A DNA stretch of 64,000 nt from an uncultured Pseudomonadota bacterium (GCA_949288265.1 CASEJM010000015.1:2052-66051); one strand, 5' to 3'; positions 1 to 8,902 are shown, counted from the first letter of the stretch. A program made the numbers and translations. The notes: generated from the sequence alone by a model not told the origin.

Positions 1-3
1 AAT

Positions 4-861
4 ATGGAAGACGCCGCCGCGACGCGCGCACGTGTTGAAGAATTATTAAAACCCAGAAAACCAAGCGGAAACCTTTGGACAACAGATAATACAACAATTG
101 TAGAAGAAGAGTGTGATGATTCTGGTGTAGAAACCGTAACAACAGAACAAAATGTTACTGTTGTAGATAATGCACCAATACAACACATAACACTTCCTTC
201 ACCACGCCCAGAATACGTGGCACAAGATTTAACGAAACTTGTAACGGTTACGTTCGGACGCAGCGATGGTTGTCCGTTTGAAACAGAAACAGAATGCGAA
301 ATATGGCGCAGAAAACCGATTATTCGTGAAACTGTATCACCACGAAGTCCCAAAATTCGCGCAGATAAAATGAACGAGTTCATAAATGCGGCTCGTTGTG
401 ACGAAGATATAACCGCTAATAATCCTGTGGCTGCGCCATTGCTAGAACGCTATAAAATGCTGATGAGTTCTGCAAACGCATGTTGCACAGACGGTATGGC
501 TTATTCTTTAAAGCAAGCAGGTGCTTCAGACGGTCTGGTATATAAATTTTTATCAGATGACGCGAACTTTTATGGATTTGGTGCCCGCTGCTTGATGACA
601 ACGGATAAAGAACTGGATGAAAAGTATCCAAACACAGCAACTGCGGCAGTAGTGGCAGACGTACGTAACGGATGTTTATGCCGCGGTCGTCAATGGTTCT
701 ATGCAATGCTTGCACCATTTGAACAGGCTTATAAAGCATTCCCTGAATTTGCTAATTACAAGTTTAATTATACTTATACAGATGGGCTGCAACGTGAAAT
801 TACAGTATCTGTAAATAACGACGTCCAGAATGTATTAAAACAGTTGGCTTTATGCCCGTAA
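4..861 (+). CDS. Cysteine-rich hypothetical protein; reading frame is open to the window edge, so possibly 5'-partial
   Basis: 285-aa ORF with many Cys (CC, C-x-C) and no recognisable domain. Followed by a strong rho-independent terminator. In-frame codon before position 4 is sense (AAT). Confidence 0.45.
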   Translation: MEDAAATRARVEELLKPRKPSGNLWTTDNTTIVEEECDDSGVETVTTEQNVTVVDNAPIQHITLPSPRPEYVAQDLTKLVTVTFGRSDGCPFETETECEIWRRKPIIRETVSPRSPKIRADKMNEFINAARCDEDITANNPVAAPLLERYKMLMSSANACCTDGMAYSLKQAGASDGLVYKFLSDDANFYGFGARCLMTTDKELDEKYPNTATAAVVADVRNGCLCRGRQWFYAMLAPFEQAYKAFPEFANYKFNYTYTDGLQREITVSVNNDVQNVLKQLALCP

Positions 862-909
862 ACCGAGCATGGAGAGAGAACGTCTACGGACGAAAAGGAA
901 AAGCCAAGA

Positions 910-940
910 AACGCCCCGACTCAACCCCGGGGCGTTTTTT
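910..940 (+). terminator. Rho-independent terminator (AACGCCCCG...CGGGGCGTT + T6)
   Basis: 9-bp GC-rich inverted repeat at 910-918/928-936 followed by TTTTTT, 49 nt after the stop of the 4..861 ORF. Confidence 0.6.
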
Positions 941-1071
941 ATATTTCATACAATACATAAAAAGACATAAATTTTGGTTATACAGCGCAAATACAATCAA
1001 TGACAAGATTTCTACTCGACACAAATTTACACGCATCAGTAGCCAAAAAAATGCCGCTAAGACGGCATCAA

Positions 1072-5757: not shown

Positions 5758-5763
5758 GGCCAT

Positions 5764-5793
5764 AAAAAACCCGCCATCAGGCGGGTTATTTTT
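5764..5793. terminator. Bidirectional rho-independent terminator (AACCCGCC-atca-GGCGGGTT) between convergent genes
   Basis: A-tract, 8-bp GC stem, then T-tract. Lies between the stop of the 3973..5757 gene and the stop of the 5792..8902 gene. Confidence 0.6.
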
Positions 5794-8700
5794 AATTAAC
5801 GCTTACGCTTAGAATGTCACCGTATTCACCAGCTTCTTCCGTACCGATATAACACTTAATATGTTTACCGACGTTATTCATCCATTCTTCGTAAGCGGCT
5901 TTTTCAGCGGCACTTAAATTTGATTTCTGAATATCACGCGTTGCTTTGTTAATCAACAAACCACCCGCAACACCAGTCACAACTGCACCAATAGTTGGTC
6001 CCCACCACTGATTCTTAGAGCCTGAAGAAGAATTTGTATTAACCGCAGCATCTTTCAACAAATTCAAACTTGATTCTGCATTAGACGCTTTACCTGACAA
6101 ATTATTCTGGGTTCTAACCTCTGATTTTTTACTGCTTTCTGCATTATTAACCTCTCTTTGTGCATTAATCCATGCAGTTACAGAATCATCTGCAGCTTTA
6201 ATTACATTACTGTCTACTTTTGCCTCTTGGGCTTCTGACTTCAAGCTGGTCATTAAACCAGATACCAAAGTCAAATCATTTTCTTCCCCACTACCAGATT
6301 TTATCTTATCTATAATTGTTGTTACGTACTTTTCAACCATTGTTTTATTATCGGTATTAGTACTTTTCTGTAACCCTGTGATTTTTCCAAATATAGAACC
6401 ATCTTGAATGCCGGCACCTAAATAACCACCACCTACGGCACCGCCAACTGATCCCAGCAACGTTGTCCAGAAAGCCGTTCTTTTCTGACTTTCACGTTGT
6501 GCCTCAGTCGCATCTGCAGCCGCAGCATTCGCTAAATCTTCTAATGTATCTGCTGGTATCCAACTTCCACAAGTAAAGGTATCACCGACAGCAAAGTAGG
6601 TTGTCGCCCAATCTGCATTTTTCATTTCTTGCTGAATATCAACATTATCAGATTGTAATCTTACCTGAACACTGCAGAACGAACCATATAAATCGTTACT
6701 TGGATTAAAGTCATTGCGGGATAAGCCCATAATGCTATATTCATCAGGTACTTTATTTCTTTTCAATTTTACCCACATAAATGTGCTGCCCGTGTCATTA
6801 GCTGACATTATGCCACCAGTATTTGAGCTTAAGCACATATTCTGTTCTTCTGTCAATTTCTTGTTATATATTGCTTGGGCTTCTTTTTCAAGGTCATAAA
6901 TTAACTCACTGAACAATGTTGTTGCGGCCTCATTCTGAACATATGATTCGTAAGATATATATATAGGAGTTTCATAAATCTTACCGCTGCTGTTTAACGT
7001 ACCACATATGCCACGGGTACCATCACTTGCAGTACATAATTCATTGCCATCAGCATCTGTTTGCGGAACACCATTTTGACCTATAACCTTTGTCGCGGCC
7101 CCGGCATCAATCCACGCATCACGCGTATTACCAGAAGCCCCCCAAGAAGATGCGGTCAAAGAAGTCTTTTGAGCGTTTAATTTCGCTTGTTCTACCGCCA
7201 GATGATCTTTACATGCAGTTGCTGTTTTAACAGTATCCAGGCACAAGCCCAATACAACCGTATAATCCAATACCCCACCAACTTTATTCATACTTTGATC
7301 ATACGAAGTTTCGCCAGATTTTGTTAATGATGAATAAATATCGGTACGATTACGATAACAGCCCGTATAATCCGTTCCGCACATAGAACGAACACAGCTT
7401 TTCGCAACATTCTCGCATTGTGTACGCATCTGTGCCAGTGCCGCATCACTATAACTTGTTGCCAAAGACGCATTCAACGCAGCAATTACACCGATTGGAT
7501 CCCCACTATTTTTACTATATTTTGGAAACAGAACATCAAAAGCATTATTATTTATATACGTATAAGTATAGTTACCGGCACCATCTGGATTCGCCGCAGC
7601 ATATTTGCAATATGCATCCGTATTTACAATATCTGAACATCCAGTTTTTATTTCTTCGTAACTTACTGAATTATTTATTGTCTTATCCGTTGCGGAAAAT
7701 ACCTGATTATAACAAGCCGCGCCACTGCCATCCCCACATACGCGCATTGCACAGGATTTAATCGTATTTGCGCAATTTGTTTTCGCTTCTGTATCAAAAT
7801 CTTCAATTAATTCTAAAATACGAGCTTTCATTGCAGAATTCATACGAGAAGAATATGCTAATGAAAATACATCTTCTTGTTTCAATTCGTCACTTAAATC
7901 TGATGCTGATGGCATCTGCCCATTACCTAAGAACGTAGCATGACAATATTTATTCGAACCAATCGTATTTAAACAAGAATTTTTTATATACGATTGAATT
8001 GCAGACTTGCTATTAGAATCCCCAGACATACTAAGCGATGAAGAACCTACTTCCGTTTCTTTTGCAATAGAATCTACAAGATTAATTGTATCAACTGTAG
8101 CTTCTTCATAACACTTATACGGATTTATAGCACAAGCATTCAAGATACATTGATCAACAACCTTATAGCAGGTCGACACAGCATTAACTGCCGCCAGCGC
8201 CGCACCTTCACTAATCATGATACCAACACGACTATCTGCCAATGGGCTACTTGTCACCGTTTCGGAGCCAAACAGCTCAATCTTACCTTCACTTTGGCAA
8301 CGAGCCAATGTAGAATCACAGTACACCATCTGCTTTTTGAATTCTGTATTTGTTGTACATAATTCAAAGTCGGATCCGCAAACATTTTCACGTTGCAAAC
8401 AAGTCGTATAAAGACGTACACAATCACTTGTATTATACATATTAGAAATCGCAGCACCTGCAATCATTTGTCCCAAAACACTGCCATCCGTAGGATATAT
8501 GTAATCATAAGAATCCTTCGTCGCAACGTTTGACAACGCCGTTATAGAAGATGTACCAAACAAAACATTAACGCCAGAAGAAGTACACTGTGCCAGCGTA
8601 CTTAAACATTGCGGCATTTTACCATGGAATAAAACTTTCGTAGTACACTCCTCAAAATTAGGTCCGCAAAGTTCCGAACCTTTTAAACAAGATGTATACG

Positions 8701-8902
8701 CATCTATACAATCTGCATTATTCAACAAATTTGACGTCGAAGATGAAGAGCTTGAACTATTTATATATGCCGTCATCGTCGGCAGTCGTGACGACGCAGT
8801 CCCCGTCACACTTGGGCGCGCTGTCAACGCATAAGCTGCAGGAACAACGCCGCAAGCAGCCAGTAAAACCATAGATTTTTTCAGAAAGTTCATTAGACTC
8901 AC
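5792..8902 (-). CDS. Large (1036 aa) Cys-rich surface protein with signal peptide, internally duplicated Cys modules and two C-terminal Gly-zipper hydrophobic segments
   Basis: Signal peptide MSLMNFLKKSMVLLAACGVVPAAYA. Two copies of a ~55-aa module (DC..YT.CL.....CG..FE.CTT...F...M..C.STLA.C.S.G....FG). Near the C-terminus: WTTLLGSVGGAVGGGYLGAG and PTIGAVVTGVAGGLLI, followed by a ~50-aa charged tail. No known domain recognised. Confidence 0.6.
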   Translation of the reverse strand: MSLMNFLKKSMVLLAACGVVPAAYALTARPSVTGTASSRLPTMTAYINSSSSSSSTSNLLNNADCIDAYTSCLKGSELCGPNFEECTTKVLFHGKMPQCLSTLAQCTSSGVNVLFGTSSITALSNVATKDSYDYIYPTDGSVLGQMIAGAAISNMYNTSDCVRLYTTCLQRENVCGSDFELCTTNTEFKKQMVYCDSTLARCQSEGKIELFGSETVTSSPLADSRVGIMISEGAALAAVNAVSTCYKVVDQCILNACAINPYKCYEEATVDTINLVDSIAKETEVGSSSLSMSGDSNSKSAIQSYIKNSCLNTIGSNKYCHATFLGNGQMPSASDLSDELKQEDVFSLAYSSRMNSAMKARILELIEDFDTEAKTNCANTIKSCAMRVCGDGSGAACYNQVFSATDKTINNSVSYEEIKTGCSDIVNTDAYCKYAAANPDGAGNYTYTYINNNAFDVLFPKYSKNSGDPIGVIAALNASLATSYSDAALAQMRTQCENVAKSCVRSMCGTDYTGCYRNRTDIYSSLTKSGETSYDQSMNKVGGVLDYTVVLGLCLDTVKTATACKDHLAVEQAKLNAQKTSLTASSWGASGNTRDAWIDAGAATKVIGQNGVPQTDADGNELCTASDGTRGICGTLNSSGKIYETPIYISYESYVQNEAATTLFSELIYDLEKEAQAIYNKKLTEEQNMCLSSNTGGIMSANDTGSTFMWVKLKRNKVPDEYSIMGLSRNDFNPSNDLYGSFCSVQVRLQSDNVDIQQEMKNADWATTYFAVGDTFTCGSWIPADTLEDLANAAAADATEAQRESQKRTAFWTTLLGSVGGAVGGGYLGAGIQDGSIFGKITGLQKSTNTDNKTMVEKYVTTIIDKIKSGSGEENDLTLVSGLMTSLKSEAQEAKVDSNVIKAADDSVTAWINAQREVNNAESSKKSEVRTQNNLSGKASNAESSLNLLKDAAVNTNSSSGSKNQWWGPTIGAVVTGVAGGLLINKATRDIQKSNLSAAEKAAYEEWMNNVGKHIKCYIGTEEAGEYGDILSVSVN

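Follow-up and report, generated by a model that had tools for sequence, protein, structure and literature searches.

What do four large, cysteine-rich exported proteins contribute to a gut bacterium with a reduced genome, and does the gene lying in their midst share in that role? The question is raised by the start of a 64-kb stretch of DNA (GCA_949288265.1 CASEJM010000015.1:2052-66051; the window), in which we named five open reading frames (ORFs) p1 (4-861, + strand), p2 (1072-1878, -), p3 (1881-3842/3914, -), p4 (3703-5757, +) and p5 (5792-8902, -). An earlier note on this DNA had regarded p1, p2, p3 and p5 as disulfide-rich secreted or surface proteins, and had joined them with p4, read as a leucine-rich repeat (LRR) protein with a kinase-like C-terminus, into an island for a receptor/effector module of host-cell interaction. 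Our analysis points, with a probability of roughly 55%, to p1, p2, p3 and p5 being order-restricted, Sec-exported, disulfide-stabilised proteins of the envelope or surface, which carry hypervariable parts and plausibly serve contact with a partner cell or host.

The window comes from a species of Candidatus Enterousia (order Rs-D84), and the p1-p5 region belongs to its conserved chromosome. In a scan of one genome per species, 74 related loci (L numbers below; P numbers denote public protein entries) belonged to Ca. Enterousia or to alphaproteobacterial/'Rickettsiales' metagenome-assembled genomes (MAGs) from the guts of humans, chickens, ruminants, horses and termites, one of them on a complete chromosome of 958,618 bp. 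Enterousia genomes measure 0.75-1.0 Mb, lack amino-acid, nucleotide and lipid pathways as well as respiration, have an incomplete glycolysis and encode many unexplained membrane proteins that were remarked on, and the lifestyle is probably symbiotic or parasitic and partner-dependent (PMC12306168). Peptidoglycan and rod-shape genes are retained in Rs-D84 genomes (PMC12306168). Full-length orthologues of the p1-p5 families were present across dozens of species. For p5, at least 850 full-length metagenome homologues were found, none of which has a Pfam domain or a name, and a profile search of 1.84 billion representative proteins returned 269 relatives in total; all 10 distant relatives that were looked up were nameless, 'hypothetical' or alphaproteobacterial/'Rickettsiales' MAG proteins. 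Judged by sequence, the four Cys-rich families are restricted to the Enterousia/Rs-D84 lineage and are without known relatives, and in the literature searched we found no paper treating these Cys-rich proteins.

Four exported cysteine-rich families

The five reading frames of the earlier note were all confirmed, but p1 proved truncated, the start of p4 wrong and that of p5 shifted. The window begins with AAT ATG, in frame with a conserved '...QNM(A/E)DAAATRARVEELL' at the middle of the p1 orthologues, which are 394-520 aa long and whose N-termini are signal peptides (MKSRIFILSSLLCLCG..A↓SEC; arrows mark cleavage sites). Since the window opens mid-gene at 'QNM', ORF 4-861 is a p1 fragment without visible signal peptide, and the corresponding feature (1..861, +) comprises the last 286 codons (285 aa) of a gene for a secreted Cys-rich protein of ~460 aa that is cut by the window edge. 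This fragment represents a highly conserved C-terminal domain with 10 Cys, its 285 aa being 63-93% identical across 18 species. On the opposite strand, p3 (1881..3842, -) encodes an exported protein of 653 aa, and its start at 3842, as placed by the earlier note, was borne out by the signal peptide MKNISRFLLLALTLCGVNAYA↓S. The p2 gene (1072..1878, -) begins 2 nt past the p3 stop and encodes an exported helical protein of 268 aa, with invariant Cys at residues 39, 55, 152, 163, 226 and 239 and a Ser-rich linker. The public call of p5 (P0001) begins at the ATG at 8893, 3 codons inside the 1036-aa ORF; this is probably the true start, yielding an exported protein of 1033 aa (5792..8893, -) with the signal peptide ..PAAYA↓LTARPS.

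As judged by eye and hydropathy scan, p2, p3 and p5 start with hydrophobic signal sequences followed by AxA-type cleavage sites, and the p1 orthologues do so too; the signal peptides that had been claimed for all four Cys-rich ORFs thus stand for these three, while none is visible in the 4-861 fragment. The Gln/Ala- and Ser-rich tracts described earlier could likewise be located, at residues ~105-200 of p3, 126-140 of p2 and 49-56 of p5. The same note had allowed that the ORFs might be decayed remnants. They are not pseudogenes: the genes are full-length, their Cys are invariant, and the codons in which p5 differs from a conspecific contig comprise 9 synonymous and 2 non-synonymous ones. The Cys-rich genes are functional and under purifying selection.

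The high Cys density of the four proteins is real. Cys makes up 3.5% of p1, 3.0% of p2, 4.1% of p3 and 3.6% of p5, against a median of 0.6% over the 45 window ORFs of at least 200 aa (0.8% in p4), and these residues are invariant across homologues. Among the other ORFs of at least 150 aa, only RlmN, a BamB-like protein, a zinc-ribbon protein and one spurious ORF contain at least 2.5% Cys, and no further large exported Cys-rich protein was found among the ORFs of the 64-kb window. Each of the 36 mature Cys of p5 was retained in 100% of 136 homologues, whose identity to p5 is 41-75%. Of the 27 Cys in p3, 26 belong to the mature form and 22 of these are conserved at 96% or more, and the 6 mature Cys of p2 are all invariant.

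Much of this richness is organised in a repeated module. The duplicated Cys module that had been noticed in p5 (8297..8710, -) was substantiated, with copies M1 (residues 62-103, nt 8585-8710) and M2 (residues 158-199, nt 8297-8422) following the spacing C-x6-C-x6-C-x6-C-x12-C-x6-C and being invariant in 136 sequences. Its four-Cys core (C-x6-C-x4-6-C-x4-7-C) occurs in five copies in p5 (at residues 62, 158, 242, 374 and 493), within five 6-Cys modules (residues 62-103, 158-199, 242-317, 374-429 and 493-561), and p3 carries one module (residues 70-107; core at 70) in which the downstream x12 and x6 spacing is as in M1 and M2. The core motif was found in 116 of 1811 ORFs from the window and the related loci, compared to 2.6 after residue shuffling, and the motif-bearing ORFs are mostly p5 and p3 orthologues, judged from ORF length and motif count. 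The AlphaFold2 (AF2) model of p5 places C62 and C69 together on a helix, C96 on the following one and C103 just beyond, which suggests that the modules would form disulfide-stapled helical hairpins. Comparison of p1, p2, p3 and p5 with each other by hhalign revealed no detectable relation (all probabilities <1%); despite this, p5 and p3 have a common Cys framework by pattern.

Other large secreted Cys-rich proteins are encoded beside p5 in L021 (13413-15689, +; 758 aa, 4.0% Cys) and L071 (13831-16440, -; 869 aa, 4.5% Cys). Hidden Markov model (HMM) comparison did not reveal homology of these proteins to p1, p2, p3 or p5; each starts with a comparable 'C-x6-C-x4-C' and carries EGF-like 'CxCxxGY' modules at the C-terminus. 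The lineage seems to hold many such Cys-rich exported families.

Both large proteins combine conserved with rapidly diverging parts. The signal peptide of p5 is followed by a Ser/Thr-rich region with an invariant R/P motif, which was modelled at low confidence, and further on, behind the five 6-Cys modules, come a beta-containing region (~600-780), two Gly-rich hydrophobic segments (811-835 and 963-990) and a conserved C-terminal stretch of 45 aa. The AF2 model, built from 136 sequences, is mainly helical, with a predicted local distance difference test (pLDDT) score of 69 and a predicted template modelling (pTM) score of 0.43; residues 60-800 mostly scored 70-88, and a four-helix bundle at 846-952 was confident. 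This bundle falls within a variable section between the two hydrophobic segments (residues 841-960, nt 6014-6373), where column conservation is 0.26-0.29, compared to 0.6-0.85 at residues 60-800 and in the last 33 residues. In p3, the Gln/Ala-rich tract (nt 3243-3530) is a predicted long-helix region, and it precedes a Cys-rich core that is conserved (280-480). The C-terminal region (521-653, nt 1884-2282) is hypervariable, differing between species in length and number of repeats, and contains conserved C-x-C motifs. Column conservation is 0.85-0.93 up to residue ~480 and then 0.38-0.56 at the C-terminus. The AF2 model of p3 is poor (pLDDT 55) and shows long helices across the Gln/Ala tract. 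A conserved scaffold joined to a fast-evolving part would fit, without proving, envelope proteins of which one part is exposed, interacts or is antigenic.

The region just behind the p5 cleavage site (8776-8818, residues 26-39) reads LTARPS...RRLPTM, with R36 and P38 invariant in 136 sequences and low confidence in the AF2 model. Behind the signal peptide of an unrelated L040 protein (17259-18137) there is likewise a string 'AARPS'. The p5 motif may be a sorting or anchoring signal.

Known families were sought for all five proteins and their orthologues in Pfam, NCBIfam, PHROGs and PADLOC, which returned LRR_5 for p4 and otherwise low-complexity noise (TFIIA, ZorG). Profiles of p5, p3 and p1 gave no significant match against the sequences of all PDB chains, and PDB fold comparison of the Cys-rich proteins revealed nothing past generic four-helix bundles. 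Neither were p1, p2, p3 and p5 recognisable as autotransporters or adhesins, there being no Pfam or NCBIfam match and no C-terminal beta-barrel or adhesin domain. Searches of Pfam, NCBIfam, PHROG, PADLOC, PDB sequences and PDB folds yielded no relative for any of the Cys-rich proteins.

The sandwiched gene p4

The gene between p3 and p5 is indeed distinct in composition, with a GC content of 28.5% and a GC content at third codon positions (GC3) of 21.5%, compared to 38% for the window. The first 90 codons of ORF 3703-5757 are the antisense of the p3 5' end and the orthologues begin at the Met at 3973, and we place p4 at 3973..5757 (+), encoding a 594-aa accessory protein without signal peptide. 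The 5' extension (3703-3972, +) stays open in several genomes, and tblastn matched p4 residues 1-65 even in genomes without p4; this open frame is an artefact that results from the coding constraint of the opposite strand.

The BspA-type LRR that had been recognised in p4 was firmly corroborated and occupies about residues 20-160 (nt 4030-4452). The window protein matched LRR_5 (PF13306) at E 6.2e-6 and 26.6 bits, just below the 27.7-bit cut-off, while the family was matched by 19 of 19 p4 orthologues (best E 1.1e-13). Solved BspA-like LRR structures were also retrieved by the p4 family profile (4gt6, E 3.9e-37; 4fs7, E 2e-31).

The C-terminal 295 aa of p4 contain a kinase-like motif set (residues 395-520, nt 5155-5532), read by eye and consisting of xGxGxFxK (398-405), VWK (K420), E439, D502-x4-N507 and IDxG (D515, G517). 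Across 19 p4 orthologues of 33-56% identity, G401, F403, K405, K420, D502, N507, D515 and G517 are invariant and E439 is nearly so; the spacing from N507 to D515 is 8 residues, compared to ~13 in canonical kinases. Kinase families were absent from the Pfam matches of the 19 orthologues, and the profile of the C-terminus retrieved no kinase from the PDB at E values up to 10. Likewise, hhalign against E. coli WaaP and WaaY gave probabilities <1%, and tblastn of the C-terminus against phages and plasmids returned no match. Going by the conserved motifs, the odds that this part of p4 is a protein-kinase-like domain are about even.

Across the related loci, p4 was present between p5 and p3 in ~23 cases, and p5 and p3 were adjacent without it in, for example, L013, L026, L030, L035, L041, L044, L046, L056, L069 and L076. 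It evolves faster than its neighbour, with 33-57% identity where p5 shows 57-75%, and hydropathy scanning revealed neither a signal peptide nor a hydrophobic or transmembrane (TM) segment. We conclude that p4 is a separately transcribed, non-exported and dispensable accessory insertion, not a receptor, and not tied to the Cys-rich genes. The proposed receptor/effector module with an LRR-kinase at its centre was thereby not upheld, p4 being absent where p5, p3, p2 and p1 are adjacent, having no export signal and being separated from p5 by a bidirectional terminator.

Transcription units, gene order and the pilin-like block

Consensus scans divided the locus into several parts. A terminator-like hairpin directly past the p2 stop (1050..1069, -) ends the p3-p2 unit, and a bidirectional terminator-like GC hairpin (5768..5787) lies between the convergent p4 and p5 genes. 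Upstream of p5, a terminator-like hairpin after rluD (8986..9008, -) and a promoter-like site (8921..8948, -), both of them consensus matches only, together suggest p5 to be its own transcription unit. As far as such scans can tell, the layout would thus be p1, p3-p2, p4, p5 and a pilin-like block, each transcribed separately, with the Cys-rich genes probably falling into three transcription units (p1; p3-p2; p5). A common unit of the Cys-rich genes, as implied by the earlier note, does not agree with at least three transcription units and with the synteny of p5 with a separate pilin-like block.

This block, upstream of p5 and on the same strand, consists of an RluD-type pseudouridine synthase gene (9017-9976, -), genes for a 176-aa secreted protein (9984-10514, -) and a zinc-ribbon/TM protein (10514-11020, -), and genes for three large pilin-like proteins of 452, 402 and 469 aa (11041-12399, 12366-13574 and 13555-14964, all -) with G↓xxxxE or G↓xxxxQ N-termini. 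A small pilin-like protein of 159 aa (16986-17465, +), with a prepilin-type N-terminus and a C-terminal Cys pair, is encoded further on. Read by eye, the prepilin-type N-termini of these four are KG↓SMLVE, YG↓ASMLE, SG↓NFLLQ and RG↓ASIIE. Their domain scores were sub-threshold (Pfam N_methyl, E 0.05-0.1; PilS, E 0.009; NCBIfam GspI and GspK weak), and no assembly ATPase, platform protein, secretin or PilB/C/D/Q was seen in the 64-kb window.

By tblastn of the window proteins against the related loci, this block, from the three large pilin-like genes to rluD, precedes p5 in nearly all of the 74 related genomes, at identities down to 38%, and p5 lies directly downstream of it in ~65 of the 76 related loci examined; p5 was apart from the block or inverted relative to it in L033, L039, L040, L049 and L071. 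Past p5 lies a synteny breakpoint. In ~30 genomes of the Enterousia genus it is followed by p3-p2 and then p1 on the opposite strand, and elsewhere by housekeeping genes, ORF-poor stretches (maybe rRNA genes) or unrelated Cys-rich genes. Conservation as a block in relatives therefore holds in part: p5 accompanies the pilin-like genes nearly everywhere, whereas p3-p2-p1 were found in ~30 genomes and p4 in ~23. In L010 (16175-22776), where p3-p2-p1 are absent, p5 is followed by DnaQ-like and UvrD-like genes and then by genes for five membrane or secreted proteins of 400-480 aa without Pfam match, one of which begins MNDIVNPL..CWGCPVFD; four membrane proteins downstream of p5 in this locus revealed no VirB6/TrbL domains.

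In L001 (14907-17240), L017, L018 and L019, one gene of 777 aa combines p3 and p2 as an in-frame fusion, which joins p3 residues 1-532 to p2 residues 46-171 and lacks both the p3 hypervariable end and the p2 signal peptide. Their spacing of 2 nt in the window and their fusion in this lineage argue that p3 and p2 act jointly. The L018 sequence (CAVGNU010000002.1) is a 102-kb contig filed as Bacteroides fragilis that nevertheless has the Enterousia-type order (pilin-like block, rluD, p5, p4, p3/p2) and is probably mis-binned or mislabelled.

The term 'island', used in the earlier note, does not suit this locus. The region is chromosomal backbone amid housekeeping genes, with synteny kept across the lineage, and its conserved genes are core genes rather than a mobile element; no integrase, tRNA or repeat boundary was found at 1-15 kb of the window, and the GC contents of p1, p3 and p5 (39-42%) are near the window value of 38%. 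The housekeeping content of the window includes DnaX, LpxD, FabZ, a sigma factor, Der, IF-2, NusA and LptF/G/D, with RlmN, PNPase, TruB, MutS, ParAB, RsmG and an ABC/HlyD exporter as further genes. Among these genes lies one for a VirD4/TraG-type coupling protein of a type IV secretion system (T4SS) at 22970-25192 (+; T4SS-DNA_transf, E 7e-53), which implies a T4SS in this reduced genome. Given this coupling gene and the basic C-terminal tail of p4, it is conceivable, as speculation, that p4 is a translocated effector. Elsewhere in the window (28992-31145, -), a 717-aa protein is encoded with housekeeping genes on either side; over its first ~90 residues it resembles the N-terminal domain of the phage T7 tail fibre (Pfam, E 1.3e-6; PHROG tail protein, E 4e-13), and no other phage gene was noticed nearby.

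Explanations weighed and known systems compared

In the explanation that we favour, the folds of four unrelated families would be held by many disulfides formed outside the cytoplasm. The p5 protein would consist of five helix-loop-helix 6-Cys modules and a beta-containing region, with Gly-rich hydrophobic segments flanking the variable four-helix bundle, and p3 would comprise one 6-Cys module, a long Gln/Ala helical region, a Cys-rich core and a hypervariable C-x-C end. To these, p2 would be added as a small partner of p3, and p1 with its very conserved 10-Cys C-terminal domain. With their conserved scaffolds and fast-evolving exposed parts, the proteins would most likely be structural parts of the envelope or surface, and might make contact with a partner cell or a host surface, on which the bacterium, metabolically dependent as it is, presumably relies. 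That a small genome invests in four conserved exported families without relatives makes them prime candidates for envelope or contact machinery that underlies its lifestyle, including contact or uptake.

Several points weigh against this explanation. The analysis shows that the proteins have export signals, invariant Cys, repeated modules and hypervariable regions, are confined to one lineage and under purifying selection, and lie in a synteny with breaks; disulfide bonding, a location in the envelope or at the surface (periplasm, outer membrane or secreted) and a role in adhesion or contact are what we infer, and the signal peptides themselves were assigned by eye and hydropathy rather than by the score of a dedicated predictor. 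The partner-dependence of Enterousia was in turn deduced from genome content (PMC12306168). With a moderate model of p5 and a poor one of p3, the missing fold matches are weak evidence, and the hypervariability could stem from relaxed constraint rather than exposure. Moreover, the variable bundle of p5 (~130 residues) would be cytoplasmic if both hydrophobic segments cross the inner membrane.

Two other readings, both of which we consider unlikely, would give these proteins a more defined task. PilY1/PilC are encoded alongside minor pilins, and p5 might accordingly be an analogue of them, acting as the large non-pilin partner (adhesin or membrane anchor) of a filament resembling a type IV pilus or a type II secretion system (T2SS). 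Its usual place directly downstream of the pilin-like block, the prepilin-type N-termini of the three large proteins and of the 159-aa protein (16986-17465), the ordinary Sec signal peptide and the PilY1-like size of p5 all agree with such a role. However, rluD, a terminator-like hairpin and a promoter-like site intervene between p5 and these genes, p5 lies apart or is inverted in the five loci named above, and the gene order of reduced genomes tends to be stable without necessarily signalling function. Furthermore, p5 has neither a PilY1/PilC domain nor a beta-propeller, the Pfam scores of the pilin motifs are sub-threshold, PilB/C/D/Q were not seen in the window, and type IV pili are not reported for Rs-D84 in the published survey (PMC12306168). 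The other reading, which we hold to be no less doubtful, is that of a disulfide-cross-linked envelope lattice like the chlamydial OmcA/OmcB/MOMP complex, providing mechanical or osmotic stability rather than recognition. It would agree with several unrelated Cys-rich exported families per genome (including the extra ones of L021 and L071), with very high Cys conservation and with the reduced genome of a host-associated organism. Against it, all mature Cys counts are even and the spacing within the modules is regular, so that intramolecular bonds fit better, and hypervariable regions would be unexpected in a purely structural lattice; PF03504 (OmcB) was not matched, and Rs-D84 keeps peptidoglycan and rod-shape genes (PMC12306168).

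The remaining readings appear far less probable. UniRef calls the p3 orthologue P0143 an 'IncF plasmid conjugative transfer protein TraN', and p3 might then be a TraN-like mating-pair stabiliser of a T4SS whose variable end binds an outer-membrane protein of the target cell. Its 27 Cys and variable C-terminus resemble the 22 Cys and variable tip of TraN (PMC9246713), and a VirD4-type coupling protein is encoded at 22970-25192. However, p3 matched neither Pfam (PF06986) at E<=1 nor NCBIfam (TIGR02750) at E<=0.1, its orthologues P0143, P0128, P0214 and P0142 had no Pfam match to TraN, hhalign of the p3 profile against F-plasmid TraN gave a probability of 0.2%, and tblastn of p3 against 72,556 plasmids returned no match at E up to 1. 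None of the genes around p3 (p2, p4, p5, housekeeping genes) is an F-type tra gene, and the coupling gene is 19 kb off. The traits of TraN that p3 does have, at least 20 conserved Cys and export, are not TraN-specific. The name given to P0143 is probably an annotation error arising from cysteine richness, and membership of p3 in the TraN family is, by these profile comparisons, largely refuted, so that a mating-pair role seems very unlikely. No more credit can be given to the host-interaction module of the earlier note, in which the Cys-rich ectodomain proteins and the LRR-kinase-like protein work as one receptor/effector. The genes do adjoin in the window and in ~23 related genomes, the LRR was confirmed and the kinase-like motifs are conserved, but p4 is missing from many genomes in which p5 and p3 are adjacent, has no signal peptide or TM segment, is convergent with p5 over a bidirectional terminator and divergent from p3, differs in composition, evolves faster and shows no detectable kinase homology. 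Least credible would be that p5, and perhaps p3, are secreted alpha-helical pore-forming toxins whose Gly-rich hydrophobic hairpin inserts into target membranes. They are helical proteins, p5 with two Gly-rich hydrophobic segments, and its C-terminal region yielded a weak, non-significant profile match to YaxA (E 1.2), while p3 yielded weak Foldseek matches to AhlB/SmhB (E 3.5-5). These matches are all at chance level, ClyA/Yax-type toxins must refold and dense disulfides would be atypical of them, and genes that are strictly conserved as single copies in core synteny tend rather to be structural.

An extension of the contact role that we favour would be that the Cys-rich and pilin-like proteins together form an undescribed disulfide-stapled attachment apparatus, which docks Enterousia, with its ~0.9-Mb genome and most biosynthesis missing, to partner cells, with the p5 bundle and the p3 C-x-C end as specificity determinants and p4 as a translocated effector, possibly via the T4SS. 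We regard this picture as rather improbable.

Enterousia and its order Rs-D84 are a widespread, uncultured and little-studied lineage in the guts of humans, livestock, birds and termites. About 7 kb, roughly 0.8% of the genome, is devoted to the four strictly conserved, exported, disulfide-rich proteins, and the new families and their repeated 6-Cys helical module are currently missed or mislabelled ("TraN") by databases. The present use of the analysis lies in a shortlist of targets for metaproteomics, structure work and imaging.

Of the systems with which these proteins can be compared, TraN lies in the outer membrane, has 22 conserved Cys and owes its partner specificity to a variable 'tip' (PMC9246713). 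Like p3 it is exported, measures ~600 aa and combines a conserved scaffold and more than 20 conserved Cys, probably all intramolecular, with a variable region, whereas sequence and profile similarity are lacking, TraN is beta-rich while helices, among them the long Gln/Ala region, are predicted to dominate p3, and there is no tra operon. The chlamydial OmcB and OmcA proteins are likewise Cys-rich exported envelope proteins without enzymatic motif in a host-dependent bacterium of reduced genome, but PF03504 is not matched here, Enterousia keeps its peptidoglycan genes, and the modules have a regular, even-numbered Cys spacing, which suggests intramolecular bonds. PilY1/PilC share with p5 a length of ~1000-1100 aa, a Sec signal peptide and a location adjoining several pilin-like genes; p5 is, in contrast, helical and Cys-rich with C-terminal hydrophobic segments, is separated from those genes by rluD and a terminator-like site, and revealed no PilC/PilY1 (PF05567) Pfam match and no beta-propeller in its AF2 model.

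As for p4, its conserved residues, as read by eye, would correspond in kind and order to the catalytic ones expected of minimal kinase effectors of the OspG/NleH or LegK type, while the shorter N-to-D spacing and the missing Pfam, PDB-profile and hhalign matches set p4 apart. Typical BspA-like proteins are surface-located and have many repeats and export signals, whereas the p4 LRR is short (~140 aa), is not preceded by a signal peptide and is followed by a unique 295-aa C-terminal domain. The 6-Cys module itself recalls the twin-Cx9C proteins of the CHCH type and the twin-Cx3C small Tim proteins. In CHCH proteins, such paired Cys staple an antiparallel helical hairpin, and in M1 and M2 of p5 the pair corresponding to C62/C69 would similarly lie on one helix and that corresponding to C96/C103 on or just after the next. 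This putative connectivity is deduced from predicted secondary structure; the spacing in p5 is x6 rather than x9 or x3, an additional Cys pair lies in the loop, and the five repeats occur in a 1033-aa bacterial exported protein. In kind, p1, p2, p3 and p5 would be Cys-rich exported envelope proteins of a host-associated bacterium, and the families themselves are new.

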